DNA from: a virus
Strand: one strand, 5' to 3'
DNA length: 64,000 nt
Virus record (IMG/VR): IMGVR_UViG_3300020048_000003
This document shows positions 4,363 to 64,000 of this stretch, one piece after another (within the stretch, counting starts at the first letter, position 1; each line of letters starts with the position of its first letter). A model generated the notes under the pieces. The model saw only the letters and a list, made by a program, of their open reading frames with translations. It was not told the DNA's origin and did not search any database. Position numbers and translations under genes: made by a program.

Positions 4363-4384
4363 ATATAATAAAATAAAAAATAAT

Positions 4385-4975: not shown

Positions 4976-4978
4976 AAA

Positions 4979-5392: not shown

Positions 5393-5440
5393 ATCTTTGA
5401 TTTAGAGTGCAAAGGTATGGAAATATTTTTAATAAAAAAA

Positions 5441-6187: not shown

Positions 6188-6262
6188 AAGTAAGTATTTT
6201 TTATGGAATAAAAAAATGAAAATGAAATTTTAATATATACCGTAAAACTATAATTATTTATT

Positions 6263-27576: not shown

Positions 27577-27758
27577 TGCCATATAAATATTTTTTAGAAC
27601 CTTGTGCTTATTGTAATAAAACTTTAATTGGAGAACATATTTGTTTGGTAGAGGAAAATTTTATAAATATATGTCGTTCTTGTTTTAATAATAGACAAAG
27701 AAAAGAACAAAGAAAAGAAAAGTTAAAAAAATTAAGCAATGTTCTTGATTTGCTCTAA
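27576..27758 (+). CDS. small zinc-ribbon protein, family A
   Basis: CAYCNK...CRSC. C-terminal tail RKEKLKKLSNVLDLL. Confidence 0.4.
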   Translation: MPYKYFLEPCAYCNKTLIGEHICLVEENFINICRSCFNNRQRKEQRKEKLKKLSNVLDLL

Positions 27759-28160
27759 TTTCATTTTTCTGTTAATTTTATTTATTTGTTTAATATAATA
27801 TTCTTTAGGTAAGAACATTCTATTTGTATCAAAATCATTACTTACCGTGTGAATTTTTTGTCCAGTTATTTCTTCAAATATTAAGCAAGGATCAAAAAAT
27901 GATATTCCATTTATAAAATCAACATGATGTATTCTTATGATTTGTTTAAATATTTCAGGATGATAATATTTAAGTTGTTGTATATCACAAGGTTTCATAA
28001 TTTCATGTATATCAACCACAAATGGATATACACGAATTATATATTTTTTATGTAAAGCAACATATTCTCTATAACTAATATCATAAAAATGATATTCTTT
28101 TAAATTTAAAAGAATATCATTTATTTCATTTGATTCTCTTATGTGCCAGGTGTTTAACAT
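27732..28160 (-). CDS. hypothetical protein, family A
   Basis: C-terminal tail RKMKLEQIKNIA. Confidence 0.45.
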   Translation of the reverse strand: MLNTWHIRESNEINDILLNLKEYHFYDISYREYVALHKKYIIRVYPFVVDIHEIMKPCDIQQLKYYHPEIFKQIIRIHHVDFINGISFFDPCLIFEEITGQKIHTVSNDFDTNRMFLPKEYYIKQINKINRKMKLEQIKNIA

Positions 28161-28366
28161 TTTTTTAGTTGTTCTAATTTTTGTTTCCTGATTTCTTTAG
28201 TATCTATGAATAAATTTTTACCATAAAACATGTCTAAACCTATATCATTTATCACCATAATTAATAAACTATCTTCATGTAAAACTTCGTACCATTTACC
28301 AATTGTAAGTGATGTGTGATATCTAGGATCATTTTCTTTATTTTTTATACATAATACTTTTTTCAT
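28154..28366 (-). CDS. small hypothetical protein, family A
   Basis: C-terminal tail RKQKLEQLKKC. Confidence 0.4.
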   Translation of the reverse strand: MKKVLCIKNKENDPRYHTSLTIGKWYEVLHEDSLLIMVINDIGLDMFYGKNLFIDTKEIRKQKLEQLKKC

Positions 28367-28638
28367 TCACTTAACTTATTAAGTTTCTGTAATTTGTATT
28401 TTCTTTTTACTAATTCTAATTTTGATTTAATATCAGGTGTTTCTGATGCAAAAAGAGTGTATTTTTTACCTTCACCTACATCATTCCAAGACACATATTC
28501 ATAGTCATGAAAGATTTGAAGATATTCTTTTATGTGATTATAGAGGATTTTATTCACAACAATATCATTTCGTGTCGTAGTATATACACGAAAAAAATGT
28601 AATCCTTGTTGTAATATGTCACCTTCTTTAATTTCCAT
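28363..28638 (-). CDS. small hypothetical protein, family A
   Basis: C-terminal tail KRKYKLQKLNKLSE. Confidence 0.4.
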   Translation of the reverse strand: MEIKEGDILQQGLHFFRVYTTTRNDIVVNKILYNHIKEYLQIFHDYEYVSWNDVGEGKKYTLFASETPDIKSKLELVKRKYKLQKLNKLSE

Positions 28639-29951: not shown

Positions 29952-30287
29952 ATGAAACATTTACAAATTTATGAAAATTTCATAACTGATTTATTTAAAA
30001 AAAAACAAAAGAGTAAACTTCATCAGGCACTATATCCTGATAATAATAATTTTTTATCTGTAGTTAAAATTAAATATCAGATAGGAGAAATATTAAAAAG
30101 AGTAGAAGATGGAAGATTAGGAAAAGTTCTTGCACATGAGCCTGGTATAACTAATGATAATCAGTTAGAAATAGTATATATGATTAAATTTGGTAATGAA
30201 CTTAATGGATATTTTAAAAAGGATCTTGAAGTACCAACAGAAGAAGAAAAAGAATTTTTTGAAACTATAAACAAATATAATTTATGA
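29952..30287 (+). CDS. family B cassette protein (N-terminus MKHLQIYENF, C-terminus NKYNL)
   Basis: Conserved termini. The stop overlaps the next start as ATGA. Confidence 0.5.
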   Translation: MKHLQIYENFITDLFKKKQKSKLHQALYPDNNNFLSVVKIKYQIGEILKRVEDGRLGKVLAHEPGITNDNQLEIVYMIKFGNELNGYFKKDLEVPTEEEKEFFETINKYNL

Positions 30288-32143: not shown

Positions 32144-33088
32144 ATGAAATTTTTAAAAAGTTTTGAGGAAACTTTATATAAGAAGCATCGTCCGAGTGAA
32201 ATGTCAAGAGAAGAGTTACTAGGACATATTTTACACTTATATGGTTCTATTCCTTTATATAAACAAAAATCACAAACAGTCTTAAAAAAGATATTATATG
32301 GCAAATTTCCAGTATTTGGTGAAGATGTACATTTAGATCATAAGAATTCTCATGATAAAGTTAGATTTGTTGATTATTTTGATTCTTTATTAAATGCTAA
32401 AGAAGTTAGAGGACATAATTTTGAAGGATTTATTGCTGGATTATATGATGGTGAGTTATCTAAACCTGGTGAAAAATATGATATAACAATAGATGGTAAA
32501 ACATGGAGTTTAAAGTTTGTTGATAATCCATCAAAAGCACCAGAAATAGGTAGTTTCTTAGCGCCTATAATAGAAAATGGTTTACAAGCAACTGTTAAGG
32601 AGAAACAAGGATTAACAAAGATATTTCAGAGTAAAAATAATGATTTAAAAAAACAACTCTTTGATATAGTATCAAAAGGTATAACAGGTGGTTGGTTGAT
32701 TGCTTATCCTATGAAAACCAAAAAAGAATTTTATATACAAATTCATATTATAGATTTGGTTGATATGGAAAATTTATTAATGCAGGGTTATAGCACATCA
32801 CCAAAAGGTGGCTTAAAGTCTTTATATTCTCTTGCTTTAAGTGCAAGGTATAAAACTTTTGAAGATGTTAAAAATTATAAAATTATAATTCCTGAAATAT
32901 CAGATGATGAATTAAGAGAAATTTATATTTCTGATAATGAAGAAATTTGGGGTACAGAAGTTTTTGGTAAAAAAACATATAAAATAAGACCAGATGTTTT
33001 AAAGTATATTAAGAAAAATTCAAAAGATATTGGTAAAAAACTAATGGACTTTGAAGAACCTACAAAATTTGATGATCTACCATTTTAA
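32144..33088 (+). CDS. hypothetical protein
   Basis: ORF track (314 aa). Confidence 0.5.
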   Translation: MKFLKSFEETLYKKHRPSEMSREELLGHILHLYGSIPLYKQKSQTVLKKILYGKFPVFGEDVHLDHKNSHDKVRFVDYFDSLLNAKEVRGHNFEGFIAGLYDGELSKPGEKYDITIDGKTWSLKFVDNPSKAPEIGSFLAPIIENGLQATVKEKQGLTKIFQSKNNDLKKQLFDIVSKGITGGWLIAYPMKTKKEFYIQIHIIDLVDMENLLMQGYSTSPKGGLKSLYSLALSARYKTFEDVKNYKIIIPEISDDELREIYISDNEEIWGTEVFGKKTYKIRPDVLKYIKKNSKDIGKKLMDFEEPTKFDDLPF

Positions 33089-33684
33089 TCTTCAAATGTA
33101 TTTTTTAATCTCTCCAATTTAAATTTTCTTAGAGCAACTTTTACTTTATATCTTTGAAAGAAATCAGTTTCAAAGTTATCTTTTGCATTGACAAATGCTT
33201 GTTCTATTATATTACCATCTTTATCAATAATTTGATAAGATTCTTCTACTTTTATGTGTGATTTTCCTCTTATTATTTCTTCTTTTATTCCAAAGGTGTT
33301 TATTTTAGGACCAGGTTCATCTTCTGTGAAAAACACCCCAGCAAAATAATTCATGTTGTTAGACTTGAACATACCATTTATTATATTTCCATATTCAAAT
33401 GTTATTGAAAATGGTTTAGGTTGTATAACTTTTTTATATGCAGAAAAGAAAATTTCAAAATTTGGTTGATAATTATAAGTGCAATATACAGTTTCATCAA
33501 TGTCTAAATCATTGAATTTTATATATTTTAAATCAAATCCAATATCATCAAATTTTTTAAGTAAAATTCCATAATTGATACTAGAAAATTGATATTTTAT
33601 TTTTTTTGAAATTAAAAAACTGTAATCAAATTTAATTTCTGATCCATAATAATGAAATTGTATATGTATAGTATCGTGATACAT
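33085..33684 (-). CDS. hypothetical protein
   Basis: ORF track. Confidence 0.45.
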   Translation of the reverse strand: MYHDTIHIQFHYYGSEIKFDYSFLISKKIKYQFSSINYGILLKKFDDIGFDLKYIKFNDLDIDETVYCTYNYQPNFEIFFSAYKKVIQPKPFSITFEYGNIINGMFKSNNMNYFAGVFFTEDEPGPKINTFGIKEEIIRGKSHIKVEESYQIIDKDGNIIEQAFVNAKDNFETDFFQRYKVKVALRKFKLERLKNTFED

Positions 33685-34085: not shown

Positions 34086-34409
34086 TTATAAATTATATTT
34101 ATTTGCTTCCATTTCTATATCTAATTGTTCTAGATATTCTTCTGGTAGAAATACTTCAAATCTGATTGCCTTGTTGTCTAGTAAAAATTTATACTCAAAA
34201 TCATTAAAATCATGATAAAATTTTTGAATATTCTTTTTTTCTAAAATTCGTGCATATTTAATAACAATATTGAGCATACCTTGATTTTCATAAAATAAAA
34301 CATTATCTGCTTCATATTTTTTCAATATATAATGATAATATTTAACGTATTTTTTGTTAAATAACTTATATTCAATGCTTAATGCTTCAAATTGTTTAAC
34401 GTGTTTCAT
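34086..34409 (-). CDS. family B cassette protein (MKHVKQFEAL ... ANKYNL)
   Basis: Conserved termini. Confidence 0.5.
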   Translation of the reverse strand: MKHVKQFEALSIEYKLFNKKYVKYYHYILKKYEADNVLFYENQGMLNIVIKYARILEKKNIQKFYHDFNDFEYKFLLDNKAIRFEVFLPEEYLEQLDIEMEANKYNL

Positions 34410-35205
34410 TTTCTAATATCATTTTTAAATGTGTTGGTAGTTCTAAATCTATATCAAAATCTCTTTTTATTCTTTCCTTCATGTATGTGAAAGTGTAATG
34501 TTTATAATATAATTTTGACCAATTTGAAGGTATTTTTTTATTTAATTCTTCTATTGTTATTGGTAAATAATTTTCATGTAATTCTCTTGACCAATTTTCA
34601 ACATAAGGATATTTTAATAACCAATGTAAAAGAGTTCTATAATTATCAATAGGACCCCAATATTGTTCAAATTCTTTTAATTGTTTAGGATCAGCTTTAT
34701 CTCTTATTATTTTAGTGAAAACTGGACTAAATTTCATGTGTTTTAATGATGGAATCATATCCCTTACTATAATATACTTGAATGTATCAATAAATACTTG
34801 ATCATTCCAAAATTCTCTAATACTTTTTGATGTGCCATATGAATAAACTTCATGAATAACTGATGATAAATATAATGCTGGTGTTTCATATTTATCTGTT
34901 TCTTCTTTTACTAATTCCCAATCATTTGTGAATAAAATATCAGACTTTTCATTCTTCAAAATATTTATCATTCTATCGTCTAAATCATAACCTATTAATT
35001 TTATATCAGGATTTATTTCGTGTATCTTTTTGAGTATGAAACCATTAGCACAACCAAAATCTACAATACAATCTGGTTGAATTTTATTTAGAAAAAACAA
35101 TTTTGATCCTAATCCTTTTTCCATTCTAGATAAATATAAATCTAAATTTGGAATAGGTTGAGCATCAATACTTTCAGTTACTATAAAGTCATTATAAGAT
35201 TTCAT
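34396..35205 (-). CDS. class I SAM-dependent methyltransferase
   Basis: Motif I IVDFGCANGF. Confidence 0.5.
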   Translation of the reverse strand: MKSYNDFIVTESIDAQPIPNLDLYLSRMEKGLGSKLFFLNKIQPDCIVDFGCANGFILKKIHEINPDIKLIGYDLDDRMINILKNEKSDILFTNDWELVKEETDKYETPALYLSSVIHEVYSYGTSKSIREFWNDQVFIDTFKYIIVRDMIPSLKHMKFSPVFTKIIRDKADPKQLKEFEQYWGPIDNYRTLLHWLLKYPYVENWSRELHENYLPITIEELNKKIPSNWSKLYYKHYTFTYMKERIKRDFDIDLELPTHLKMILENETR

Positions 35206-35561
35206 AAATTATATTTTTTTGCATTTCTTCTTAGTTCAATCCATTCGTAAAGTTTAACTGATTCATTAAATTCCATATGAATATAAGAAATTCTATCATA
35301 TGTTGTATCGTGTTCGTCAACAATCTCATCATAAAATTCTACCATTGAATCTATATCATCATATTCATCTAATTGTTCTAATATAGAATCATATCCTTCT
35401 TTTTTACATGCAAAATAAACTTTATTTGCTATAAAATTAAAAGCATCAGTATAATTATCAAATAACCATCTATAATTACTATATCCATCACCAATTCTCT
35501 CAAACGAATAGATATGAGGTTTTTCAGATTCTAGATTTTCGTTAAATTTTATAATTTTCAT
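35202..35561 (-). CDS. family B cassette protein (MKIIKFNENL ... AKKYNL)
   Basis: Conserved termini. Confidence 0.45.
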   Translation of the reverse strand: MKIIKFNENLESEKPHIYSFERIGDGYSNYRWLFDNYTDAFNFIANKVYFACKKEGYDSILEQLDEYDDIDSMVEFYDEIVDEHDTTYDRISYIHMEFNESVKLYEWIELRRNAKKYNL

Positions 35562-35914
35562 AAATTGTATTTTTTTGCTACTTTATTAAGTTCTTTATCT
35601 TCTATCCATTTTTTATATTCTCCTGGTGATCTCCACATTGGAGCATAATTTTTTTGACCACAATTATCACATATCCATTCTGGTGGTTGCATTCCACCTT
35701 TTGGTATTGGTGTTAATTTATAACTATCACATTTAGTACAAATATAATATCTATCACCAAATACGGTGTCATATAGATAAGGATTAAAATTATCTTCAGG
35801 TTGTTCTTGTTTAGTTAAATAATTTCCTTTCGCATTATACAATTCACCTGTACTCCAATTCTTTTTAAATTTAGGTTTCTTTTTGAAGAACTCATAGATT
35901 TTTACGTGTTTCAT
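35558..35914 (-). CDS. family B cassette protein with a zinc ribbon (MKHVKIYEFF ... AKKYNL)
   Basis: CTKCDS...CDNCGQ. Confidence 0.5.
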   Translation of the reverse strand: MKHVKIYEFFKKKPKFKKNWSTGELYNAKGNYLTKQEQPEDNFNPYLYDTVFGDRYYICTKCDSYKLTPIPKGGMQPPEWICDNCGQKNYAPMWRSPGEYKKWIEDKELNKVAKKYNL

Positions 35915-36291
35915 TATAAGTTATATTTATTTGCGATTCGTCTAGTAGGATCAGTATCTTCTATATCTTGATTTAAATTTGAATTTTTTTCTATTTCTTC
36001 TTGTTTTTTAGCAATACTTTTCAATTCTTTCCAATATTTTTTAGAAAATTCATAACGAGTAATTGTATCTCCTTGTGATACAGATACAAAATATTGATTA
36101 GAAATTGCATTATCATTATAAAAACAAAAATACCTTTTATTATCTATTTTAAATCTATATCCAATTTCGTCTTCAATTTCAATTTGTATATTTTCATCTT
36201 TTAAAATTTCTATAATGTTTGACATTATTGGATCACCTATTTTTGGTTTATCTAAACCAAACAATTCGTTAATTTGGAGTATGTGTTTCAT
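35914..36291 (-). CDS. family B cassette protein (MKHILQINELF ... ANKYNL)
   Basis: Conserved termini. Confidence 0.5.
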   Translation of the reverse strand: MKHILQINELFGLDKPKIGDPIMSNIIEILKDENIQIEIEDEIGYRFKIDNKRYFCFYNDNAISNQYFVSVSQGDTITRYEFSKKYWKELKSIAKKQEEIEKNSNLNQDIEDTDPTRRIANKYNL

Positions 36292-36294
36292 ATT

Positions 36295-36735
36295 TTATAA
36301 ATTATATTTTTTGATATCCTCTCTTCTTTGAATAACTTCTCTTGTTATTCTTTTACCTTCATCATCAACACCTCTTTTTTTATACTTATTAATAAGTTCT
36401 ACAATCCAAGGTTCTAAACTTCTACCACCATTACCTTCAACTTCACTTCTAAGTTCTTTTGGTAACCAAATATGATATAGTTTAGTATCTTGTTGAAATC
36501 TTGATCTCATTTCTAACATGGTCATAGCAGCTACACTATTTGAGTCTGCTTGTATTCTTACCATATTTTCAATATCCAATCCTTTTTTAAATAATTTTTT
36601 TACTGGAATAAAGGTTTCAGATGCAAGAAAGATGTAAAAATCATGATCTTCACTTAATGGATTTTCTGTTAATAAATCTCCTAAAAGTTCTATTTTTTCT
36701 TCTGTTTTTGATTCAAATGTTTTTAAATGTTTCAT
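36295..36735 (-). CDS. family B cassette protein (MKHLKTFESK ... KKYNL)
   Basis: Conserved termini. Confidence 0.5.
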   Translation of the reverse strand: MKHLKTFESKTEEKIELLGDLLTENPLSEDHDFYIFLASETFIPVKKLFKKGLDIENMVRIQADSNSVAAMTMLEMRSRFQQDTKLYHIWLPKELRSEVEGNGGRSLEPWIVELINKYKKRGVDDEGKRITREVIQRREDIKKYNL

Positions 36736-37262
36736 TATAAGTTATATTTTTCTGATTCTAGAAAGAATTCAAATTCACTTTTTGTTAAATATTTTATAAA
36801 GTTTTTTATTTCTTCTATCGTATTAATTTTATAAAAATTTACTCCATTTTTAAATTCTTCTGATGTTATTTTTTGAAAATTGTTTGCTTTTTCACATACA
36901 TATACTAAAAAATCTGCAATATTTTTTTCTATTTCTGATATTTTTATTGGATAAATATTATCTTTTATAAAAATTTTTAATAATATTTTATTATCATTTG
37001 TTTTTAGAAAATCAATGGTATTTAACTTTAACATTATATAATATAAACTTTTTCCATCAAGTGGATTATCTTTCATCTTAACGGTCATATTATTTACAGA
37101 AAAATTAAAATCTTTACCTTTTGGCTTTTTTAATTTTGCAAATAATTCTAATTCATCAAGAAAACTTTTTGTTGAATTTACTAATAATTCAACATTTTTT
37201 TTACTTGTTACTGAATCTTTATTAAAAAAATCAAAAAATTCAAATGTTTTTAAATATTTCAT
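36735..37262 (-). CDS. family B cassette protein (MKYLKTFEFF ... SEKYNL)
   Basis: Conserved termini. Confidence 0.5.
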   Translation of the reverse strand: MKYLKTFEFFDFFNKDSVTSKKNVELLVNSTKSFLDELELFAKLKKPKGKDFNFSVNNMTVKMKDNPLDGKSLYYIMLKLNTIDFLKTNDNKILLKIFIKDNIYPIKISEIEKNIADFLVYVCEKANNFQKITSEEFKNGVNFYKINTIEEIKNFIKYLTKSEFEFFLESEKYNL

Positions 37263-37798
37263 AAATTGTATGATTTTATATCTTTTAAGAAGTTAATTGC
37301 TTCTTCAAGTTCTGTTAATTCGCTATTATATATTTTTATTTTTTCATTTTTATTATCATGTATATTTAATAGAATATATTCATCTTGTCCATAAGTATTA
37401 TCTGGTACATGTGATTGTGGTAATCCCATTACGTTATAGAAACTTGCCGAAAAAATAAAATTTAACTCATAATGAAATTTCATATGTAAAAATGCACTTT
37501 TTACTTTGCCAATATAAGAAGAATATCCCCACTTATCTTTTTTCATATTCCATTCAATATATTTACCTTCAATAAGAGGCTTAAATGCTTTATCTCTAAA
37601 TTCTTCTGCTATCATACCTTTTTTACCCCAAGCATTTATATCTTTTGAATCTTTAAATGTTATCATCTTCTTTTCTATAATTTGATCTCTATACGTATTG
37701 TAATCTTTCCATAGCATACTTAAATCAACTTCTCTAAAACTTTCATTTTCAAGAAACTCTCTAATAGTTTGATTTTCATATGGTTTAATATATCTCAT
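37259..37798 (-). CDS. family B cassette protein (MRYIKPYENQ ... KSYNL)
   Basis: Conserved termini. Confidence 0.5.
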   Translation of the reverse strand: MRYIKPYENQTIREFLENESFREVDLSMLWKDYNTYRDQIIEKKMITFKDSKDINAWGKKGMIAEEFRDKAFKPLIEGKYIEWNMKKDKWGYSSYIGKVKSAFLHMKFHYELNFIFSASFYNVMGLPQSHVPDNTYGQDEYILLNIHDNKNEKIKIYNSELTELEEAINFLKDIKSYNL

Positions 37799-38082
37799 AA
37801 GTTATATTTATCTGCTTCCATTTCATAGTCTGGTACTAATCTCATTTCATATGCTGTTTTCCATCCACCACCAGTTTTTTGTACACCACCTCTATTATTT
37901 ATATCTTCACAAAAATAAGAATTATCTCTAAATCCACTCAATGTTACAATAAAAAAAGTATTTAATTCTTCACCTCTTTTATCCAAAACTTTTACAATAT
38001 CACCATTTTTAAATTTTTTAGTAGCATTAATAACAGTATAAGATGCATCAGTTTTTGTTTCGTATGTTTTAATATGTTTCAT
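37795..38082 (-). CDS. family B cassette protein (MKHIKTYETK ... ADKYNL)
   Basis: Conserved termini. Confidence 0.5.
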   Translation of the reverse strand: MKHIKTYETKTDASYTVINATKKFKNGDIVKVLDKRGEELNTFFIVTLSGFRDNSYFCEDINNRGGVQKTGGGWKTAYEMRLVPDYEMEADKYNL

Positions 38083-38417
38083 AAGTTATACCTATTTGCT
38101 ATTATTTTTAAACCTAATTCGGAATTCTCTATTTCTTCTGGTGTTAGTTTTCTAACAAAATATATTTCTTCAAATTTACAATCATCAATTTGAATTTTTT
38201 GAACACCTAAAATAGTTTCAATCATAACATCGTAATAAATATTATAACCTTTTTGTTTTTTTCTTTTTTCACCTAATTTTAATATCCATTTAATATAACA
38301 ATCAATTTCATTATCGTGCATCATTAGTTTTACTAAATCACCAACACGTACAAAGTCATTATTTTCACATAAAATTTCATAATTATCAAACATTTCAAAC
38401 TTTTTTATATACTTCAT
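38079..38417 (-). CDS. family B cassette protein (MKYIKKFEMF ... ANRYNL)
   Basis: Conserved termini, with codon-level variation (AGG TAT AAC TTA). Confidence 0.5.
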   Translation of the reverse strand: MKYIKKFEMFDNYEILCENNDFVRVGDLVKLMMHDNEIDCYIKWILKLGEKRKKQKGYNIYYDVMIETILGVQKIQIDDCKFEEIYFVRKLTPEEIENSELGLKIIANRYNL

Positions 38418-38794
38418 AAGTTATATTTCTTTGCATTTTTATAAATATCTGTATCATTCATATATTCAACAAAGTATTCAATTTGTTCTTTATTAAGAGA
38501 AATTTTTTCAGATTCTTCACCATTATCCCAACTAATATATACACTAATATTATCGTCATCTTTATTTACTCTATATACATCAAAAGCATCTTCATATTCA
38601 GTATAATTTTTATTATCTTCCTCTAATACTTTTGGTAATAAGGTAGGATTATAAAATAAAAATTCTTCCATTCTTCTAAATAAATTTTGTTCTCTAACAA
38701 ACATATCAACCCTTTCATCTAAAAATTTTGATAATTTACTTGCTGACCATCCAACTTCTAAAGTACTTGATTCATAATTTTTTAGATATTTCAT
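38414..38794 (-). CDS. family B cassette protein (MKYLKNYESS ... AKKYNL)
   Basis: Conserved termini. Confidence 0.5.
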   Translation of the reverse strand: MKYLKNYESSTLEVGWSASKLSKFLDERVDMFVREQNLFRRMEEFLFYNPTLLPKVLEEDNKNYTEYEDAFDVYRVNKDDDNISVYISWDNGEESEKISLNKEQIEYFVEYMNDTDIYKNAKKYNL

Positions 38795-46861: not shown

Positions 46862-47293
46862 ATGGCATTTAACTTAAATATAGGCTATCCTAATGATCCT
46901 GTTTATACAAATTTATTTATAATAAATTTTGATGATGAATATATGAAGGAGAATTGTTATAAAATGGATAAAAAATATTGTTATTTTAATGCTAATGAGA
47001 TTAATGAGAAAATTGTTCCATTAGAATATATTTATAGACTAATTAAAAATAAAGAAGTCTTTGACTTACCTATTTATATTCATAATAAAAAAGAAACAGT
47101 AATACAGATTATTATATTAGAAAATTTTCAATTTACCAAATTAAAAGATGTTGTAAATTTTGATTACAGTAGATTTTCTGATATTATGAAATTAAGAGTG
47201 AGATATAAATATAAAAATATGGTATTGTGTAATGATTATAATAAATATTTGAGAAAAAAGAAATTAGAAAATATAAAAAAAATATCTGAATAA
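46862..47293 (+). CDS. hypothetical protein, family A-like tail
   Basis: ORF track. Start moved to the MAFNLN ATG that follows the upstream stop. C-terminus KKLENIKKISE. Confidence 0.4.
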   Translation: MAFNLNIGYPNDPVYTNLFIINFDDEYMKENCYKMDKKYCYFNANEINEKIVPLEYIYRLIKNKEVFDLPIYIHNKKETVIQIIILENFQFTKLKDVVNFDYSRFSDIMKLRVRYKYKNMVLCNDYNKYLRKKKLENIKKISE

Positions 47294-49313: not shown

Positions 49314-49634
49314 TTAAGTAACATCGTTTAATTTTTTAAGTTTTTCTTTTCTTTGATAAGTTATTATTAATTTTTTCATTAATTTATCACGTTCAAACTT
49401 ATTATAACCTAATTTTTGCATCATATTTGAAGTTATATTATTAGGTATGTTTATAATTTTTTCATATTTGCCTCTACTAAGTCTTTTTACAAATCCGGAA
49501 TTAAGCATATGATTAATATATTGACCCTCAGTAGAATTGCTGCTATCGGTTATACGGAGAGATATTCTCATTTCTTTTTTTGTAAATATTTTATTATTAT
49601 TTACAAAATCTACAACATCAGACCACTTACTCAT
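49314..49634 (-). CDS. hypothetical protein, family A
   Basis: C-terminal tail QRKEKLKKLNDVT. Confidence 0.45.
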   Translation of the reverse strand: MSKWSDVVDFVNNNKIFTKKEMRISLRITDSSNSTEGQYINHMLNSGFVKRLSRGKYEKIINIPNNITSNMMQKLGYNKFERDKLMKKLIITYQRKEKLKKLNDVT

Positions 49635-50064
49635 TTGTTAATTTTTTTAATTTTTCTTTTCTAAGTTCTTTTAATGGTGTTTTATTAAAATCTTCTATGT
49701 CAACAAAACAACCTCCACCAAAAAATGCTTGTATGCCAGATTTACTTGTTAGTGTCATTCCCAAATAACTTTCACCATCTAAATGAAATGAACCAATTTT
49801 TTCTATATAATTTTTACTACCATTAAATACATCTGTATCATCACCAATTGTTAGAACTTTATTATCATTAAGTCTTAAAATTGAATGAATATAATAATTA
49901 TCATACCAATTATATGTAGCATTTAATATTATAAAATTAAATTCTGAGTCTTTTTCTGTTATTATTATATTATTCCACTTCTCACGAGTTCTTAATTTTA
50001 AGAATCCATATTTTTCCTTGGTTACTATTCGTTTATAATAACTTAAAATTTTATAATTGGACAT
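49627..50064 (-). CDS. hypothetical protein, family A
   Basis: C-terminal tail LRKEKLKKLTNE. Confidence 0.45.
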   Translation of the reverse strand: MSNYKILSYYKRIVTKEKYGFLKLRTREKWNNIIITEKDSEFNFIILNATYNWYDNYYIHSILRLNDNKVLTIGDDTDVFNGSKNYIEKIGSFHLDGESYLGMTLTSKSGIQAFFGGGCFVDIEDFNKTPLKELRKEKLKKLTNE

Positions 50065-51309: not shown

Positions 51310-52128
51310 TTATTCTGATTTTTTTAGTTTTTCTACCTTTCTTCGTTTTCTTTCTTGATAGGTTATACCTTTAATAAAATGATTATCAATTTCATTTTGA
51401 TATTTTTGTCTATAGTCCTCAACATTATTTAGTCTTTCTTTTGCCATTTTAATATAATTTTCAGATATATCAATACCTACATAATTACAACCAAACAATG
51501 TTGCTGAAAGTGCGACGGTGCCAGATCCGCAATAAGGATCTAATACAATTTTATCCTTATCATTGTCAAATATAGAGTAGATAATCCTTGTAGGCAATTC
51601 TAACGGAAAAGGCGCAGGATGTGGGTTTTTATTCTCAGGCATTATATCCCATATGGCTGTAGCATTTGCGTGTTTTGGTAAAAGTTCTTTTCCTATTTTA
51701 GAATGGTTTGGTTTGTATAGCCAATAAATTCTTTCGTCTGTTTGCCAAAATCTCCATCCTCTTAAATTTCCAGTTATTTTTCTATTCCATACAATTTCTT
51801 GTTTAATCATGAAATTAGTTTTACTTAACCAAAGTATTGGATGAATCATATTTCCTTCATCCCATCTACATTTATGATTATAAAAAAATGAACCACCAGG
51901 TTTTAAAGTTCTATAAACTTCATTGATTACTTCAATCTGACGACTTTGATATACATCTTCTGGAAGATTATCATCATAAGAATCATACTTTACTTTTTTA
52001 ATAATCTGACCTTGATTATTTCGCTTATTATAGGGTGGGCTTGTAATTGCGAGATCAAAATAGTCAGAATCTATCAATTGTAATGTTTTTAATGTTTCTC
52101 CTATTAGTAATTCATTTAGTGGTTTCAT
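51310..52128 (-). CDS. DNA methyltransferase, beta class (N4-C/N6-A; motif IV SPPY before motif I), family A tail
   Basis: DLAITSPPYNKRN, then LDPYCGSGTVALSA. C-terminal tail RKRRKVEKLKKSE with no downstream gene. Confidence 0.7.
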   Translation of the reverse strand: MKPLNELLIGETLKTLQLIDSDYFDLAITSPPYNKRNNQGQIIKKVKYDSYDDNLPEDVYQSRQIEVINEVYRTLKPGGSFFYNHKCRWDEGNMIHPILWLSKTNFMIKQEIVWNRKITGNLRGWRFWQTDERIYWLYKPNHSKIGKELLPKHANATAIWDIMPENKNPHPAPFPLELPTRIIYSIFDNDKDKIVLDPYCGSGTVALSATLFGCNYVGIDISENYIKMAKERLNNVEDYRQKYQNEIDNHFIKGITYQERKRRKVEKLKKSE

Positions 52129-52256
52129 TTAGTTTTTTTAATTTTTCTTTTCTTTTCTTTGCTATGTTTTCACAGTCTGGGCAAAATTTTGAATTTATAC
52201 AATTTCCCTTAGCTTCATGTAATTTTACATGTGGACAAAGAAAACAATGTTTATCT

Positions 52257-52574
52257 TTACCTGGGCAAATTACTTTCATTAATTTGGTCTATTTTATTTT
52301 TACGTTCTTCTTTTATATCAATAATACCATATTTATCATGAAGCATTTCCAATATATCACGAACAATTACAATTTTAAGAGTCATTTCTTCTGCAAATGT
52401 ATCATCAATAGAAATATCAAATTCATTTTCTAAATCTATAATCATTTGAACTTGATCTAGAGAGTCTAGTCCTAATTTTACTAAATTTGTACCTAAGTTT
52501 ATATCATGATATTCAACACCATATTCTTTAATGGCTGCACTAACTGCTTTAAATAATTTTTGATGTACGTTCAT
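52257..52574 (-). CDS. acyl carrier protein-like
   Basis: LGLDSLDQVQMIIDLENEFDISI matches the ACP phosphopantetheine-site motif [21 protein letters not shown]. Confidence 0.6.
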   Translation of the reverse strand: MNVHQKLFKAVSAAIKEYGVEYHDINLGTNLVKLGLDSLDQVQMIIDLENEFDISIDDTFAEEMTLKIVIVRDILEMLHDKYGIIDIKEERKNKIDQINESNLPR

Positions 52575-53189
52575 TTAACTCTCATTTTTTAATTTGTTAC
52601 TAAATTCCACAAATAATCCTAACCAATGTTTAGGATTACAATCTTCATCATATATTCTATGTTTTAAAGAATTCAATGATGAATATTCTATAATGCTTCC
52701 ATTATCTTTAATTTGTTTACCAAAGTCTAATATTCGTAGAGCATGATAGATATTTTTACTTACATAATCAAAATTTTCATCTTTATATGAAAGAATTGCA
52801 TTGTGCCAACTTGCTGAAGCCAGACTTATAACTTTTTTACACATTTCTTTCTCATTATACTTATTCATTTTGAAGTTAAAAGTTTTCTTTACTATCATTT
52901 CTTCTGGTAAAAATATACATTCTAATGCTGACATTTGATAATTATTTATAGCATCTATAAATCCACCTCTTGAGTAGCAAGTACCTTGAATTTCTCTATT
53001 TTCAGATGAAATTGCATTATCTTTAAATGCTCCGCTTGGTAAAAGTGAACGCTTATGAACTATGATATAATCATAGTCTGAAAATTCAGTATTACTACCG
53101 TAAACATGAGAACCATAAGGATATATGTTTAATATATCATTTATGTTTAGATTTAAACTTTCACAAATTTCTTCAGCTGTAAATTTCAT
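52575..53189 (-). CDS. Pol-beta-superfamily nucleotidyltransferase domain protein
   Basis: YPYGSHVYGSNTEFSDYDYIIV matches GS...G...SD.D. Confidence 0.5.
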   Translation of the reverse strand: MKFTAEEICESLNLNINDILNIYPYGSHVYGSNTEFSDYDYIIVHKRSLLPSGAFKDNAISSENREIQGTCYSRGGFIDAINNYQMSALECIFLPEEMIVKKTFNFKMNKYNEKEMCKKVISLASASWHNAILSYKDENFDYVSKNIYHALRILDFGKQIKDNGSIIEYSSLNSLKHRIYDEDCNPKHWLGLFVEFSNKLKNES

Positions 53190-53349
53190 TTTTTTATATT
53201 ATTTAGTTTTTTTTGTCTAACATATCTTTCAATAACATCAAATGGTAAAGAATCTAATATTTGTTCATGTGATAGGTCTTTTATGCGCGGAAACCATTCC
53301 TCATATCCTTCTGTTATAAATATTCCAGGTCGTTTATATTTATTTAAAT

Positions 53350-53622
53350 CTATATTGATTGGCATAATTTTTTCAATTTTAATTTTCTATCTAATTTCTT
53401 AGTTGTGAATCTTGATGAAAAACAATTAATTATTCCTATATCACTATAAATTTGTACTTCATCAGCGTTATATTCTCTATATGATCTAATTACTGTATAT
53501 TCATTACCTTCTGTTAAATAATGAGTTAACCCCATGTTACAAATACAGATGATTCTATCACCTTCTTTCCATTTAGGGGTTCTCTTATCTGTTGGTTCAA
53601 AATATTTATATTTCATTTTCAA
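53350..53622 (-). CDS. small family A protein
   Basis: C-terminal tail LDRKLKLKKLCQSI. Confidence 0.4.
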   Translation of the reverse strand: MKMKYKYFEPTDKRTPKWKEGDRIICICNMGLTHYLTEGNEYTVIRSYREYNADEVQIYSDIGIINCFSSRFTTKKLDRKLKLKKLCQSI

Positions 53623-53881
53623 TGTTTTTAATCTTTTTTCTTCTTAATTCTTTTATTCCTGTAAAATGTTCTAATCTTGGATAACCATATAATGCAACAA
53701 ATAAGTTATAATTTATATTTACAAATTTAGTTGATAAAATAGTGATAAAATTATGATTATCATCAATATCAGTTATAATGAATTTATCATTTTTATTGAT
53801 AAGATGAGAACGACCCTGAGGATCTGTTGTTCTAAACTCTATTTTAGCAAATAAAACATCTCCAACCTTATAACCGTACAT
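53606..53881 (-). CDS. small family A protein
   Basis: C-terminal tail LRRKKIKNIENEI. Confidence 0.4.
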   Translation of the reverse strand: MYGYKVGDVLFAKIEFRTTDPQGRSHLINKNDKFIITDIDDNHNFITILSTKFVNINYNLFVALYGYPRLEHFTGIKELRRKKIKNIENEI

Positions 53882-54239
53882 TTTTTATCTTATTTAATTT
53901 ATCTTTTCTTACCGCCTTTAATGATATTGCAAAATAGTCTGAAATATTTGTATCTTTTGCTAATTCATAATATTTGAAAAATTCATCTTGAATTTGAATA
54001 GTATAGTTACGATCAACTTCGCTATTCAGATAATATACAGGATAAGATGAAACATGCAATTTATATTTTTTACCAAATATAAATCTACTATTATGATAGT
54101 TATTACTTTGATTTGGTGGTACTTGCGTACCAATTGGATATAAGTATTTCGTATCATAGCCAGTTTTTATACAATATAGTTCAGTAATTTTACCGGCTAT
54201 AATATCTCTTGCTATTTCATTGTCTTTCTTTTTGTCCAT
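53868..54239 (-). CDS. small family A protein
   Basis: C-terminal tail VRKDKLNKIKNVRL. Confidence 0.4.
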   Translation of the reverse strand: MDKKKDNEIARDIIAGKITELYCIKTGYDTKYLYPIGTQVPPNQSNNYHNSRFIFGKKYKLHVSSYPVYYLNSEVDRNYTIQIQDEFFKYYELAKDTNISDYFAISLKAVRKDKLNKIKNVRL

Positions 54240-54453
54240 TTATTTTCTCCAATTTTAATTTTCTGTATTTACTCAAAGTTATAAAATAATTTTCAATATA
54301 GTTTATAGAGACTTGAGTATCACATCTATCACCATGTAACATATATCTACCTACATAATTTAAATCTTCAATTTCATAAATTTTACCTTTTTCAAAGTTA
54401 AATCCCCATTGTTTATGCGTTGAAAAATCATCTTTTATTGCTATGTATTTCAT
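54217..54453 (-). CDS. small family A protein
   Basis: C-terminal tail YRKLKLEKINGQKERQ. Confidence 0.4.
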   Translation of the reverse strand: MKYIAIKDDFSTHKQWGFNFEKGKIYEIEDLNYVGRYMLHGDRCDTQVSINYIENYFITLSKYRKLKLEKINGQKERQ

Positions 54454-54673
54454 TTAATTTTTGTTTTCTTTCTTTTTGTATATCTATAAAATGATATTTG
54501 AAATATTCTTCACTAAATTGTCCAATATTTCGTCCTAATATAGATTTATTATTATCATAAACAAAGTAGTTGTACGGATAAAACTCACGTTGTTCAATAA
54601 TTTTATAAATATAAATTTGATTCATTTCAAATGATGAATTTGGTGCAATCGGGACAACTAATTTACATTTCAT
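54428..54673 (-). CDS. small family A protein
   Basis: C-terminal tail ERKQKLNEIHSNKR. Confidence 0.4.
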   Translation of the reverse strand: MKCKLVVPIAPNSSFEMNQIYIYKIIEQREFYPYNYFVYDNNKSILGRNIGQFSEEYFKYHFIDIQKERKQKLNEIHSNKR

Positions 54674-54992
54674 TACTTAGTTTTTTTAATTTTTCTTTTC
54701 TTTCGTTTTTTAAGTTTGTGAAATAATCATGAAAATATTTTTGTCTATCATATGATGTAATACTAATTTGATAATTTTTCTTGAATGAGAATTTATAGCC
54801 TGGTGCAATATCATATAATTTTGTCTTTCTACTTGAAAGAAGATTTTTATTATAATCTATCATATCTTCTGGATAAAAACGCATATATACAACATTAGCA
54901 TCAGCACAAATTTCATATTCATAATATTTGCCTGCCTGAAATTTTCCAAAGCCACATTCAATAGTTTTGATACATTTATATTTTTCCGCCAT
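54663..54992 (-). CDS. small family A protein
   Basis: C-terminal tail ERKEKLKKLSNEM. Confidence 0.4.
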   Translation of the reverse strand: MAEKYKCIKTIECGFGKFQAGKYYEYEICADANVVYMRFYPEDMIDYNKNLLSSRKTKLYDIAPGYKFSFKKNYQISITSYDRQKYFHDYFTNLKNERKEKLKKLSNEM

Positions 54993-55293
54993 CTGAAATA
55001 TTTTTTAATTTTTCTAACTTTTGTTTTCTTAAGAAGACTTCTCCCATATATCTAAAGTTATATCCTTCAGGTCCATAACAATCATAATCATTCCATTCAA
55101 ATTTAGTACCATCATTTTCAACAGATACATAGAAAAAGCCTCTCTTTCTTATTCCTTCTACTATATAATCATCTTCAGAAGAATTTGATAGTCTACTTAA
55201 AATAGCATCAATGCGCATCGGTCTAAATCCTAAATGCCGCATAGAATCTCTGTAACCAGTCTTTTCAGTTATCTTCCAATATACATTTTCCAT
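54976..55293 (-). CDS. small family A protein
   Basis: C-terminal tail LRKQKLEKLKNISDGGKI. Confidence 0.4.
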   Translation of the reverse strand: MENVYWKITEKTGYRDSMRHLGFRPMRIDAILSRLSNSSEDDYIVEGIRKRGFFYVSVENDGTKFEWNDYDCYGPEGYNFRYMGEVFLRKQKLEKLKNISDGGKI

Positions 55294-55459
55294 TTAGTTT
55301 ATCAAGTTTTTCTTTTCTCATTTTTACAATATCTTTACAATCAGGACATTGAGTATTCATATAACAATTCCTGTCCTCTTTGTGATTTTTTCCATGATAA
55401 CAATCATTTTCCCATTTACACATATGAGCCATTGGACAAATTACTATTATTTTTGGCAT
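55265..55459 (-). CDS. small Cys-rich family A protein (starts MPKI)
   Basis: Eight Cys. C-terminal tail MRKEKLDKLNGK. Confidence 0.4.
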   Translation of the reverse strand: MPKIIVICPMAHMCKWENDCYHGKNHKEDRNCYMNTQCPDCKDIVKMRKEKLDKLNGKCILEDN

Positions 55460-55689
55460 ATTTTTTTTAATTTTCTCTTTCTTAATTCCTTTAAAGTTGG
55501 TGTAGGTTTAGGTATCATACTATACTCTATATAACCTCTCATAAAAAGTATAGATCCAAATAAAACATCAATTGCTACTATTGTATACCATTTAACGTGA
55601 TCAGAAGCACTAAATATTAGAAATGCTGTCATAACTAACATTATCTTACCAAATTTCTTCCAATCAACTGTTTTTAGAAATTCTTTCAT
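55447..55689 (-). CDS. small membrane family A protein
   Basis: Two transmembrane helices. C-terminal tail LRKRKLKKICQK identical to that of 55888..56148. Confidence 0.4.
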   Translation of the reverse strand: MKEFLKTVDWKKFGKIMLVMTAFLIFSASDHVKWYTIVAIDVLFGSILFMRGYIEYSMIPKPTPTLKELRKRKLKKICQK

Positions 55690-55900
55690 TTATTTCTTGT
55701 ATTTTTAGTTTTCTAAAATATTCTATTTGATCTCTCTTTTTTTGAAATTCAATTCTTTTATATTCACCCAAATAATATTCATTTTTTATAATGTTTTTAC
55801 AATGAGGACACTTATCATCATAACCTTGCACCACATAATCACAGTACTCACAACGAATTCTGTAATATTTTTTTGGTTGACATGGTGTTATTTTTGGCAT
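55664..55900 (-). CDS. small zinc-ribbon family A protein (starts MPKI)
   Basis: CEYCDY...CPHCKN. C-terminal tail FRKLKIQEINER. Confidence 0.4.
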   Translation of the reverse strand: MPKITPCQPKKYYRIRCEYCDYVVQGYDDKCPHCKNIIKNEYYLGEYKRIEFQKKRDQIEYFRKLKIQEINERISKNS

Positions 55901-56148
55901 ATTTTTTTTAATTTTCTCTTTCTAATTTCTTTTGTCGCTGGTATAAATAAATCACTTCTAAAAGAAGAATTCTTATACTCTTTTACTTTTATCCATTCTT
56001 CATTTAATCCTTTAAATCCAAATTTTATATCAACACTTTCAACAACATGAATTGCATTAATATTATAAGTATTTTTATAATACATCAACGATTCAATATC
56101 GCCTGATAATCTATTCTTATCAAATATAACTAAATCTCCTTTTTTCAT
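55888..56148 (-). CDS. small family A protein
   Basis: C-terminal tail IRKRKLKKICQK. Confidence 0.4.
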   Translation of the reverse strand: MKKGDLVIFDKNRLSGDIESLMYYKNTYNINAIHVVESVDIKFGFKGLNEEWIKVKEYKNSSFRSDLFIPATKEIRKRKLKKICQK

Positions 56149-56630
56149 TTTTCATTTAACTTTTTTTCATACATCATTTTAACTCTATCAACATCAATAG
56201 TTTGAAAGTTAGTCATATATCCAATTTCGTTATATGCTGATCCCATTTTTTCAATAGTATCAATACATAAGCCTTTAATTGAATCTAAACTTAAATTGTT
56301 ATTAATAGTTGGCAATGCTAAGTATAAATAAATACAAATATCATTGTTATTTGAATTGTATGCAATTTGCTGAAATTGATATACCATATCTTTATCAATT
56401 TTTCTGATAATATGAGATAGTATCATATTGGTATCTTCACATACTTTATTACCACATGTTTTCCATAAGTTGAAACCAAGAGCCACAACCATTTTAAGAT
56501 CCTCTACAGGATTTTTAGAATTGGTCAATGCTTTTGTAAACCGATTCATTTGGTTTGCAATAGTTGACTCTACATTATCATATGTTTCACCCTTTGAAGG
56601 ATTGTTGATTAACTTTTCTACATCTATCAT
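56145..56630 (-). CDS. hypothetical protein
   Basis: ORF track. Confidence 0.45.
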   Translation of the reverse strand: MIDVEKLINNPSKGETYDNVESTIANQMNRFTKALTNSKNPVEDLKMVVALGFNLWKTCGNKVCEDTNMILSHIIRKIDKDMVYQFQQIAYNSNNNDICIYLYLALPTINNNLSLDSIKGLCIDTIEKMGSAYNEIGYMTNFQTIDVDRVKMMYEKKLNEK

Positions 56631-62685: not shown

Positions 62686-63042
62686 ATGAAATATTTTAAG
62701 TCGTTTGAAGATTACTCTAATTACTCAAGTAATAAGTTAAAATTTCCAGATAAAAATTTCCAGATGGCATTTATGGAGGATATGATGGATGTTTATATGA
62801 ATCCTGAATCTTTTTATAAATTTTATTTCAAAGGTGGCTTAACAAGAGAAATGATGTTAGAGTATATTGATCTTTTTATAAAAGTAAGAGGAGGTAATTT
62901 TTTAGGAGACCTTTTTGATAGAGAAATTTTCAGAGACTTATTACTTTTTAAATTTTTTAATGTACCATTAAGTGATATAGATTCAAATATTGAACCATTT
63001 CTAACTGATTTTGAAGTAGATACAAATAAATATAATCTCTAA
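62686..63042 (+). CDS. family B cassette protein (MKYFKSFEDY ... TNKYNL)
   Basis: Conserved termini. Confidence 0.5.
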   Translation: MKYFKSFEDYSNYSSNKLKFPDKNFQMAFMEDMMDVYMNPESFYKFYFKGGLTREMMLEYIDLFIKVRGGNFLGDLFDREIFRDLLLFKFFNVPLSDIDSNIEPFLTDFEVDTNKYNL

Positions 63043-63071
63043 AAGAGATATTTACAAAAGTAAATTAATTT

Positions 63072-63374
63072 ATGAAATATATCAAACTATTTGAATTACT
63101 TGAACTTGAGCAATATAGTAAATATTGGAAGATAAGAACAGATACACCATACTATAACATTAGTTTAGATAAAATAAAAATGCCAAAAGATATACAAAAA
63201 GATTATTTAGATTCAGAAATAAGAAGAAGATATTTTAAAAATTTAAAATTTGTTTTTATTGCAAAAGAACAAGCAGGAACAGGATTTGAATGGACTTGGA
63301 GTGGTTATGAAACTGAATATAGAAAAAAGTTCAGAAATATGGGTGATCACATCAGAAGATTTAGAAGAATATGA
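63072..63374 (+). CDS. family B cassette protein (MKYIKLFELLE). The KYNL junction downstream is in a different frame.
   Basis: The stop at 63372-63374 precedes the junction element AAATAAATATAATTTATGA, which reads ...VNKYNL in the +1 frame. Confidence 0.45.
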   Translation: MKYIKLFELLELEQYSKYWKIRTDTPYYNISLDKIKMPKDIQKDYLDSEIRRRYFKNLKFVFIAKEQAGTGFEWTWSGYETEYRKKFRNMGDHIRRFRRI

Positions 63375-63404
63375 ATTAAATAAAACTGTAAATAAATATA
63401 ATTT

Positions 63405-63689
63405 ATGAAATATATTAAAACATACGAATCATACATCCAGCCTGGAAACAAAGAAGTAAATTACAAAATAGGTGATATAGTAGTTTGTAGTACTAAAAAA
63501 AAACTTATGAATCCAAATGATCCTGGTAAAGTGCCAATATATGGTAGAAAATATAAAATATTAGATATGTTTCAAAATCAATATCTAACAATACAAGATA
63601 TTGTTGATACTTCTTTTATTCAAATTGGATGGGATAAAAGAAATTTTACATCAGAAATAAAATGGGATTTAAATAATTATAACTTATAA
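63405..63689 (+). CDS. family B cassette protein (MKYIKTYESY ... LNNYNL)
   Basis: Conserved termini. ATGA overlap with the next gene. Confidence 0.5.
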   Translation: MKYIKTYESYIQPGNKEVNYKIGDIVVCSTKKKLMNPNDPGKVPIYGRKYKILDMFQNQYLTIQDIVDTSFIQIGWDKRNFTSEIKWDLNNYNL

Positions 63690-63690
63690 T

Positions 63691-64000
63691 GAAGTACTTA
63701 CAAATATATGAAAGTTGGTATAAAGATTGGTTTCTTAAAAATAAAAAAGAAGAAGAACCAATAATTTATCCTAGTGCTGAAAATCAATATTGGAAACGTA
63801 TTTTTTCAATAACTTTGAATCCAGGATACGGTGCGGTTGTTTTTGATCAAAAACACTTTAATATTGAATTAATTATGAAATTTACGTATGAAATTGATTT
63901 GATGGATGATGGAAAAGGTGGTGAATATCATTTTGACGGAATTTGGAAAACTGCTTTTGATTGGAGTGTTTATTATAAAAATAAGTCTCCCTTATTTGGT
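63691..64000 (+). CDS. family B cassette protein, 3'-truncated by the window end (MKYLQIYESW)
   Basis: Conserved N-terminus. Open to the end of the window. Confidence 0.45.

Follow-up and report, generated by a model that had tools for sequence, protein, structure and literature searches.

A shared C-terminal peptide tail on many small proteins of an uncultured low-GC jumbo phage and its putative docking or address role

We analysed a window of 64,000 nucleotides (nt) from the IMG/VR virus record IMGVR_UViG_3300020048_000003, in which about one-fifth of the genes, most of them otherwise unrelated, share an eight-residue C-terminal tail of the form R-K-x-K-L-x-K-[LI], often preceded in this phage by [LI]-K-E-[LI]. 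The window has a GC content of 27% and a compact small-gene layout, and it encodes 11 tRNAs, two DNA methyltransferases, an SF2 helicase and a SusC-like outer-membrane barrel. A helicase protein identical to that of the window occurs on metagenomic contigs of 209 kb, a 286-kb contig is also recorded, and the source is an uncultured low-GC jumbo phage. Among GenBank phages no match was found to 24 kb of the window (megablast) or to one tail protein (tblastn), and the closest cultured relatives of the helicase are T4-like cyanophage helicases only, at 25–30% identity. On the minus strand, positions 52112–56148 hold an uninterrupted run of 15 small open reading frames (ORFs) of 55–204 amino acids, in which neighbours overlap by 4–29 nt. 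The original prediction, made from the letters of the window, was that all eleven ORFs between 53350 and 56148 end in the tail; they do, as do 14 of the 15 consecutive ORFs of the whole run, 52575–53189 being the only one without it. Within 52112–56630 no terminator-like sites were found, and promoter-like matches were close to the shuffle expectation and did not lie at junctions.

The motif occurs far more often than chance would allow. A strict pattern, RK.K[LI]..[LI], gave 30 matches in the six frames of the window, 29 of them in long ORFs and 24 sited 9–17 residues before the stop; a relaxed pattern gave 28 C-terminal copies, and the total in the window is 28–30. Strict matches in tail position number 21, against a mean of 0.017 in residue-shuffled proteins. 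This enrichment at gene 3′ ends, which the prediction had proposed to examine genome-wide and which we computed for the window, bears out the claim that many small genes have a common C-terminal tail. Between 1 and 24 residues follow the motif, and it lies 9–33 residues from the stop. Two features once ascribed to the tail fall away: the trailing -N(-E) is the start of the next gene, A-ATG-AAA, read in the upstream frame, and the supposed heptad-like spacing is i, i+3, i+4, i+7, which marks one face of a helix.

The repeat is very probably a translated peptide that is selected as such, with selection acting on the amino acids and not on the DNA. This view is based on five lines of evidence: the reading frame, the codons, the rate of change, copies that have no downstream gene, and the tails of relatives. 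As to the frame, a 24-nt weight matrix trained on the related contig L003 was run along both strands of the window, and the converse scan, from the window to L003, was also made. The known copies were recovered, and the further matches lay in frame near ORF 3′ ends, with the sole exception of a chance match at the N-terminus of a gene; no out-of-frame or intergenic copy, including in the intergenic leaders of first genes, was found with this matrix in the window or in L003. Codon usage at R1, K2, K4, L5, K7 and L8 is indistinguishable from that of the genome (Monte Carlo p = 0.12–0.65). Five Leu codons (TTA, TTG, CTT, CTA and CTC) interchange at background frequencies, and five Arg codons (AGA, AGG, CGT, CGA and CGG) are used but never the Ser codons AGT or AGC (p = 0.004), T standing at the third base of codon 1 only when C stands at the first, which gives CGT (Arg) and never AGT (Ser). 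The variation in Leu and Ile codons that had been noticed between copies is therefore real and extends to Arg; the DNA element of about 30 bp that was thought to underlie the tail is not, as the nucleotides are conserved no more than the codons require.

The rate of change was taken from the codons that differ in 11 independent homologous pairs from related contigs. Bodies changed at 51% of codons and conserved motif positions at 20% (p = 6e-7), i.e. 2.6 times more slowly, and both the x positions (41%) and the post-motif residues (58%) were body-like. The comparison of synonymous with nonsynonymous variation, suggested at the outset, thus gives codons that drift synonymously together with conserved motif positions that change more slowly than the bodies. 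No adjacent downstream start, within 16 nt, was present in 64 of 220 tails (29%), including tails at convergent gene ends and tails facing a tRNA; in these 64, K2, L5 and K7 are as conserved as in the rest. It had been argued that the tail is not purely a translation-initiation element, and the frame-locking, the codon usage and this share of well-formed copies without an adjacent start agree with that. A C-terminal peptide tag, one of the roles proposed, likewise emerges as a serious candidate from the frame-locking, the background-like synonymous codon usage and the slower change of the motif.

The fifth line comes from related phages. A relative with a 76% identical helicase has 27 tails in 21.5 kb, and one with a 58% identical helicase has the variant tails RQEKLESIGI, RNNKLESIGI and REEKLNKILK, in which R1, K4, L5 and I8 are kept and K2, K7 and the net charge are lost. 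Only R1, K4, L5 and [IL]8 are constant across the wider phage group, and the gene content of the arrays is almost wholly different between relatives with 76% identical helicases. Scanning IMG/VR with a degenerate DNA pattern for R-K-E-K-L-K-K-L gave 112 stretches, with 83 matches in 80 loci listed. Among the matches listed, 47 of the 83 were at ORF tails, all in contigs of 17–30% GC, many of them 130–330 kb long and with up to 28 tails per 15 kb; the remaining matches listed were isolated chance matches in higher-GC contigs. The tail recurs across a group of uncultured low-GC jumbo phages. It is not a general bacterial motif, because only 13 of 120 sampled matches in bacterial genomes were at ORF ends, never more than one per locus, and among these 120 no host protein family for the phage to mimic was seen. 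No Pfam family covers the tail, PHROG matches were to families of unknown function only, through the body of one protein and reaching at most the first motif residues, and no paper describing the tail was found in the literature. A profile search against 1.84 billion representatives gave six matches at E < 1e-3, all of them C-terminal in small proteins, the 33-column tail profile being too short for a census. A homologue search with an 88-residue tail protein gave one match, and one with a tail alignment scored 178 candidates.

The tail is modular. A pooled set of 216 unique tail proteins falls into 138 BLAST body clusters, 103 of them singletons, with more than 100 unrelated small bodies bearing the tail. 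In iterative profile searches with the tail removed, 26 of 63 tail proteins joined one SH3-like family and the other 37 stayed outside it. Conservation upstream of the motif, at F(-11), [YH](-8), F(-7) and T(-5), is confined to the SH3-like family; the 37 carriers outside it show the same invariance at R1, K4, L5 and [IL]8 as its members do. In the acyl carrier protein (ACP) encoded at 52257–52574, the fold occupies residues 4–81 of 105 and the tail is appended to it. Other carriers are a DUF7448 protein, Cys-rich zinc-ribbon-like proteins, a predicted membrane protein and many ORFans of 100–340 amino acids. A metagenomic protein of 150 residues, P0135, is a natural in-frame fusion of two SH3-like-plus-tail units; its first tail is internal (RKLKLEKL), and the second unit directly follows it.

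The information content is 4.8, 3.1, 3.0 and 2.5 bits at positions 1, 4, 5 and 8, whose helix angles of 0, 300, 40 and 340 degrees fall within a 100-degree arc; the invariant core R1-K4-L5-[IL]8 (i, i+3, i+4, i+7) is one face of a predicted α-helix. An AlphaFold2 model of ORF 53350–53616, run on a 13-sequence alignment (mean pLDDT 79.6, about 86 over the tail), predicts an SH3-like barrel followed by a helix at residues 73–87, which is the tail. The model of the ACP with its tail, made without an alignment, was uninformative (pLDDT 47). The mean Eisenberg hydrophobic moment of the tails is 0.20, against 0.35 in shuffled tails, and their mean hydrophobicity is -0.54; because of these values, a membrane-targeting amphipathic helix of the MinD/FtsA type was rejected. 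The mean charge of the tail is +3.6 in this phage and 0 to +1 in most variant tails of the relative with the 58% identical helicase (one has +4). Since charge is not conserved, and the variant tails keep R, K, L and I but lose their positive charge, a generic polycationic nucleic-acid binder was rejected too. The basic amphipathic nucleic-acid-binding tail of the original prediction is thus unsupported in both its parts, relatives having R[DENQ]xKLxxI and the moment lying below that of shuffled tails. Signals for ClpX of the ssrA and MuA type lie at the very C-terminus, and an extreme-C-terminal degron was rejected in view of the 1–24 variable residues that follow the motif.

The tail and the start of the following gene are closely associated. 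For 151 of 216 tails (70%), the next ATG falls between -12 and +16 nt of the motif end, with peaks at +1, +4 and +7; its distance is variable, and either remaining frame may be used. Neighbouring genes overlap by 8 nt or more at 69% of tail junctions vs 18% of other junctions (p = 2e-22). Tail-junction overlaps are unusually long (8–29 nt) because the upstream ORF continues to an out-of-frame stop inside the next gene. The motif codons are about 65% A, and the only bias found at the nucleotide level favours A as the last base of codon 8, where ATA and ATT stand at 15:4, compared with genome-wide shares of 40% and 52% (p = 0.01); this base is A in 84% of tails with a start following and in 69% of those without (p = 0.016). 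The residues 'CQ' after several tails are ATGCCA (M-P) read in the upstream frame. A junction subtype, ...K[LI]CQ(K/S) with a next gene starting ATGCCA (M-P-K/I), occurs at 55447–55482, 55888–55923 and 53350–53388 and at many IMG/VR tails; the window genes that start with ATGCCA are small, and two of them (55265–55459 and 55664–55900) are Cys-rich. Programmed frameshifting or poly-A slippage fusing ORFs was rejected, as many copies lack an A run and the next ORF may be in either of the other frames.

Shine–Dalgarno (SD)-like 4-mers precede 4 of 119 genes of the window (3%), compared with 6.6% of random 15-mers, which is below random, and positions -14 to -3 upstream of its genes are 58–70% A at most positions. 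A-rich, SD-less upstream regions are the Bacteroidetes pattern (PMC6728339), and for this reason the host is probably a Bacteroidota-type bacterium. In the window, neither the -33/-7 promoter pattern of Bacteroidetes (8 copies against 8.4 expected) nor the T4 late-promoter box TATAAATA (34 against 24.6) gave a usable signal. The genes of the window share with Bacteroidetes initiation regions the lack of SD motifs and the wealth of A upstream (PMC6728339), and the tail codons take up exactly the stretch from -14 to -3 of the next gene. The earlier remark that the tail sits just where such an initiation region would be is confirmed by the ATG offsets and the SD-less genome, and the role appears to be a secondary one, superimposed on the peptide; that the RNA encoding the tail acts as an A-rich SD-less start region for the gene that follows is partly shown. 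A preference of Bacteroidetes for A leaves unexplained the invariant Arg, Lys, Leu and Ile/Leu, the frame-locking and the copies without a downstream gene.

What the tail does is a matter of graded likelihood. We give an even chance to the reading that it is a modular, putative docking or address helix for one common partner or destination, because a single conserved face of Arg/Lys and Leu/Ile recurs on many bodies, with neither charge nor amphipathicity conserved. Such a mixed face would be docking-peptide-like. Encapsulin C-terminal cargo-loading peptides and the C-terminal PRANC/F-box of poxvirus ankyrin proteins are short modules that dock unrelated proteins to a shell or a host complex; they belong to different systems, have no sequence similarity to the tail and are illustrations of tag action only. 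A large set of accessory proteins would bind one common partner, or reach one destination, through the tail, candidate partners being a phage or host hub or the prohead. Since the residues beyond [LI]8 are unconstrained and the motif codons are rich in A, the next ATG would be drawn to the motif end, at offsets of -8 to +16 nt: free variation past [LI]8 would allow the start of the next gene to move up to the last constrained residue, and the A-rich codons would double as its SD-less initiation region.

The closest functional analogy is with the internal proteins of T4, a varied group whose only common feature is a short capsid targeting sequence (CTS) (PMC3012670, PMC9026906). In both cases a short terminal peptide is all that diverse, fast-evolving small accessory proteins of a large genome of myovirus type have in common, as the 138 body clusters among 216 tail proteins illustrate here, and the tail would be a C-terminal counterpart of the T4 CTS. 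Nevertheless, the CTS stands at the N-terminus, differs in sequence, is removed by cleavage and has been shown experimentally to direct packaging, whereas the present tail is C-terminal. Of the 216 tails, 51 (24%) have the triplet [LIV]-x-E precisely at -4 to -2, against a background of 1.9%, which makes it a position-specific minority feature. It matches the T4 prohead-protease motif L/I-X-E, although three quarters of the tails lack it; by this analogy, a C-terminal targeting propeptide may be kept alive as a reading, though most tails are without the triplet and the genes lie among early-looking ones. In its boldest form, which we hold to be improbable, the tail would be a genome-wide C-terminal address tag that sends about one-fifth of the phage proteins, and more than 100 unrelated small effectors across the group, to a single destination through the R-x-x-K-L-x-x-I/L face. 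That destination could be the prohead, with co-injection alongside the DNA and the enriched [LI]-K-E before the tail as a putative prohead-protease site, or, alternatively, a single hub protein of the host; in both versions the tail would parallel the T4 CTS from the C-terminal end and on a much larger scale.

Several points weigh against a docking or address role. The conservation-moment test is descriptive only (P about 0.05), as the pattern itself selects positions 1, 2, 4, 5 and 8. About 40% of the tail proteins share one SH3-like body, so that part of the signal is paralogy. The tail genes stand in runs with helicase and methylase genes that look early or middle rather than late; this disfavours a virion destination. 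The tight coupling of the motif end to the next ATG could mean that most copies serve an RNA role first and foremost. Should the tail prove to be a docking or address tag, it would single out a whole set of accessory proteins working through one partner or compartment, already 216 distinct proteins in the pooled set, and would offer a portable handle of 8–12 residues for finding that partner. The junctions are also a clean natural case of dual coding, in which the codons of a selected peptide motif appear to double as the SD-less start region of the following gene, with systematic overlaps of 8–29 nt, and they are relevant to gene calling in low-GC phage genomes and to translation initiation in SD-less hosts.

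Other explanations would do without a docking or address helix. It is unlikely that the tail is the mere signature of paralogues, in which the helix is the C-terminal element of an expanded SH3-like family whose bodies have been replaced in the arrays while the 3′ end and junction were kept, the tail having no function. The 26 of 63 tail proteins that join one SH3-like profile, the restriction of the conserved F(-11), F(-7) and T(-5) to that family, the highly plastic arrays with their 36-nt junction repeat, and the natural two-unit fusion P0135 fit this account, but it leaves R1, K4, L5 and [IL]8 equally invariant in 37 carriers outside the family and the tail persisting on the ACP, on the DUF7448 protein, at convergent gene ends and in relatives with 56–100% helicase identity. 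A functionless relic should also decay like the post-motif residues, which the tail does not, and no out-of-frame relic was found. We see only a slim chance that the RNA element is primary, i.e. that the A-rich 24 nt enhance SD-less initiation or termination–reinitiation and encode a peptide only incidentally. In keeping with such an element, 70% of copies have the next ATG at -12 to +16 nt, long overlaps are peculiar to tail junctions, codon 8 favours A as its last base, especially before a start, and the genome is SD-less with A-rich upstream regions (PMC6728339). At odds with it, all copies are read in a single frame of the upstream ORF, with the ATG at a variable distance and in either other frame. 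Moreover, Leu codons and Arg AGA/CGN interchange at background frequencies, the 29% of copies without an adjacent start are equally well formed, and no copy occurs in the intergenic leader of a first gene. The original prediction had likened the element to the start-associated sequences (SAS) of Cluster K mycobacteriophages, which are a fixed 13-bp sequence (GGGATAGGAGCCC) with an AGGAG SD core, located 3–7 bp upstream of starts (PMC3203893). Both are repeated elements just upstream of many starts, in a non-structural part of the genome, in one orientation and with varied gene families, and the next ATG does lie near the motif end in 151 of 216 tails here, yet 64 of 220 have no adjacent start. 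Unlike the fixed DNA consensus of the SAS with its SD core, the tail codons drift synonymously at background frequencies in an SD-less setting and are always translated in one frame of the upstream ORF, with no intergenic copy found; the resemblance is thus limited to position near starts.

As had been noticed, two of the tail junctions are near-identical: the 58 nt at 55447–55504 are 86% identical to those at 55888–55945, and the first 36 nt (55447–55482 and 55888–55923), made up of the tail and the MPKI start, match exactly. This exact repeat indicates that duplication or recombination from junction to junction does occur. We nevertheless regard it as very doubtful that the element is a recombination cassette boundary whose sequence mediates modular shuffling of small genes. 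The precedent is that of the promoter-early stem-loop (PeSL) cassettes in hyperplastic regions of T4-type phages, where a non-coding repeat, with a strong sigma-70-type promoter and a terminator stem-loop in an intergenic spacer, mediates such shuffling (PMC2839356). In both cases repeats bound small non-essential genes in plastic regions and could favour modular shuffling; here a single 36-nt exact repeat is common to two junctions, and array gene content is almost completely different between relatives with 76% identical helicases. Unlike PeSL, however, the junctions here are coding and overlap without a spacer, with neither promoter nor terminator features; the element is frame-locked, selection is seen at the amino-acid level, and most copies share scattered bases only, synonymous drift eroding the identity that recombination needs. 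Given the 36-nt repeat, a cassette boundary as a by-product is possible. Least credible of all is nascent-peptide pausing, in which a K/R-rich peptide or AAA codons would slow the ribosome over the next start and impose strict translational coupling. It would explain both the frame dependence and the closeness to the next ATG, and runs of AAA codons are present; but relatives keep the motif without most of its Lys (RQEKLESI), the distances from motif to stop (1–24 residues) and from motif to ATG both vary, and 29% of tails are without a downstream start.

The individual copies, whose strand is minus unless given otherwise, bear out the variety of the carriers. In the run 52112–56148, taken from high to low coordinates, the tail RKRKLKKI (55900–55923) ends ORF 55888–56148, which has an SH3-like body, and the next ATG (MPKI...) overlaps its last motif codon; RKLKIQEI (55691–55714) follows a zinc-ribbon-like Cys-rich body in ORF 55664–55900, RKRKLKKI (55459–55482) a predicted membrane protein in ORF 55447–55689, and RKEKLDKL (55295–55318) a Cys-rich body in ORF 55265–55459. 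RKQKLEKL (55006–55029) ends ORF 54976–55293 and RKEKLKKL (54678–54701) ORF 54663–54992. At RKQKLNEI (54446–54469), in ORF 54428–54673, the next ATG lies inside the motif at an offset of -8. ORF 54217–54453, with RKLKLEKI (54241–54264), and ORF 53606–53881, with RRKKIKNI (53621–53644), belong to the SH3-like family, and between them ORF 53868–54239 ends in RKDKLNKI (53886–53909). The tail of ORF 53350–53616, whose AlphaFold2 model has the predicted SH3-like barrel and helix, is RKLKLKKL (53365–53388); that of ORF 53186–53365 is RQKKLNNI (53195–53218). RKNKIDQI (52281–52304) is the tail of the complete ACP fold of ORF 52257–52574, and RKEKLKKL (52130–52153) ends the Cys-rich body of ORF 52112–52279. 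The N6/N4 DNA methyltransferase at 51310–52128 had been counted among the carriers, but its KRRKVEKL (51325–51348) is a weak and doubtful match only.

Outside this run, RKEKLKKL ends both ORF 49627–50064 (tail at 49639–49662) and ORF 49314–49634 (49329–49352), the latter with no adjacent downstream gene. RKKKLENI (47252–47275, plus strand) ends ORF 46862–47293, and RKFKLERL (33106–33129) the 199-residue product of ORF 33085–33684, again with no adjacent downstream gene. Three minus-strand copies lie close together, namely RKYKLQKL (28381–28404) in ORF 28363–28638, RKQKLEQL (28166–28189) in the SH3-like family member ORF 28154–28366, and RKMKLEQI (27747–27770) in ORF 27732–28160. The last of these ORFs is convergent with the plus-strand ORF 27576–27758, which ends in RKEKLKKL (27711–27734); both members of this pair are tailed, their 3′ ends overlap by 27 nt, and the post-motif residues of the plus-strand ORF are encoded opposite the motif of the other. 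RKIKLEQI (19796–19819) in ORF 19766–20089 has no adjacent downstream start, and after RQKKLQKI (18759–18782) in ORF 18738–19067 the next start is 49 nt past the motif. RKEKLQKI (7851–7874) ends ORF 7839–8132, and RKIKLLQL (6890–6913) ends ORF 6884–7315, whose neighbouring gene is convergent. Three plus-strand copies complete the set. The core-type tail RVEKLKKL (3390–3413, coordinates computed from the ORF end) closes ORF 3198–3443 and is followed, as had been stated, by a tRNA, identified as tRNA-Leu at 3485–3570. RKDKLKKI (1933–1956) in ORF 1501–1974 was likewise said to precede a tRNA, but ARAGORN places none there, and a 146-nt spacer leads to the gene at 2121–3110. At RKEKLEKI (1066–1089) in ORF 874–1164, the next ATG is at +7 nt and the upstream ORF continues for 24 codons past the motif.

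A second tag-like family was also found, comprising at least 35 distinct proteins that end exactly in [NK]-[KNSR]-Y-N-L-stop and start with M-K-[YH]-[IL]-K-x-[FY]-E. The E at residue 8 is present in 28 of 35, the codons vary synonymously, and the bodies differ, one of them being SH3-like (63405–63689). In the window the family occupies 34086–38794 (minus strand), 29952–30287 (plus) and 62686–64000 (plus), the last continuing into contig L001 at 1–7400, and it is also found at 14291–16718 of L003 and 122–1674 of L009. Its N-terminal leader resembles the T4 CTS in length, position and Glu (PMC9026906).

The cluster of 11 tRNAs at 49–4322 includes four tRNA-Gln, two tRNA-Ile(GAT) and an odd tRNA-Tyr(ATA), and several of them are 86–96 nt long. 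ARAGORN found no suppressor tRNA among the tRNAs of the window, and stop-codon recoding was rejected for this reason and because the ORFs are compact under table 11. Several auxiliary genes lie on the minus strand. The SusC/TonB-dependent-receptor-like protein at 11578–14916 has 1112 amino acids, with a CarboxypepD_reg domain and an outer-membrane β-barrel (Pfam E = 1e-46), and is an unusual auxiliary gene for a phage. The others encode an ADP-ribosylglycohydrolase at 17936–18709 (PHROG E = 2e-58), a ligase-like fragment at 19070–19711, and the ACP at 52257–52574, which has a DSLD phosphopantetheine site.

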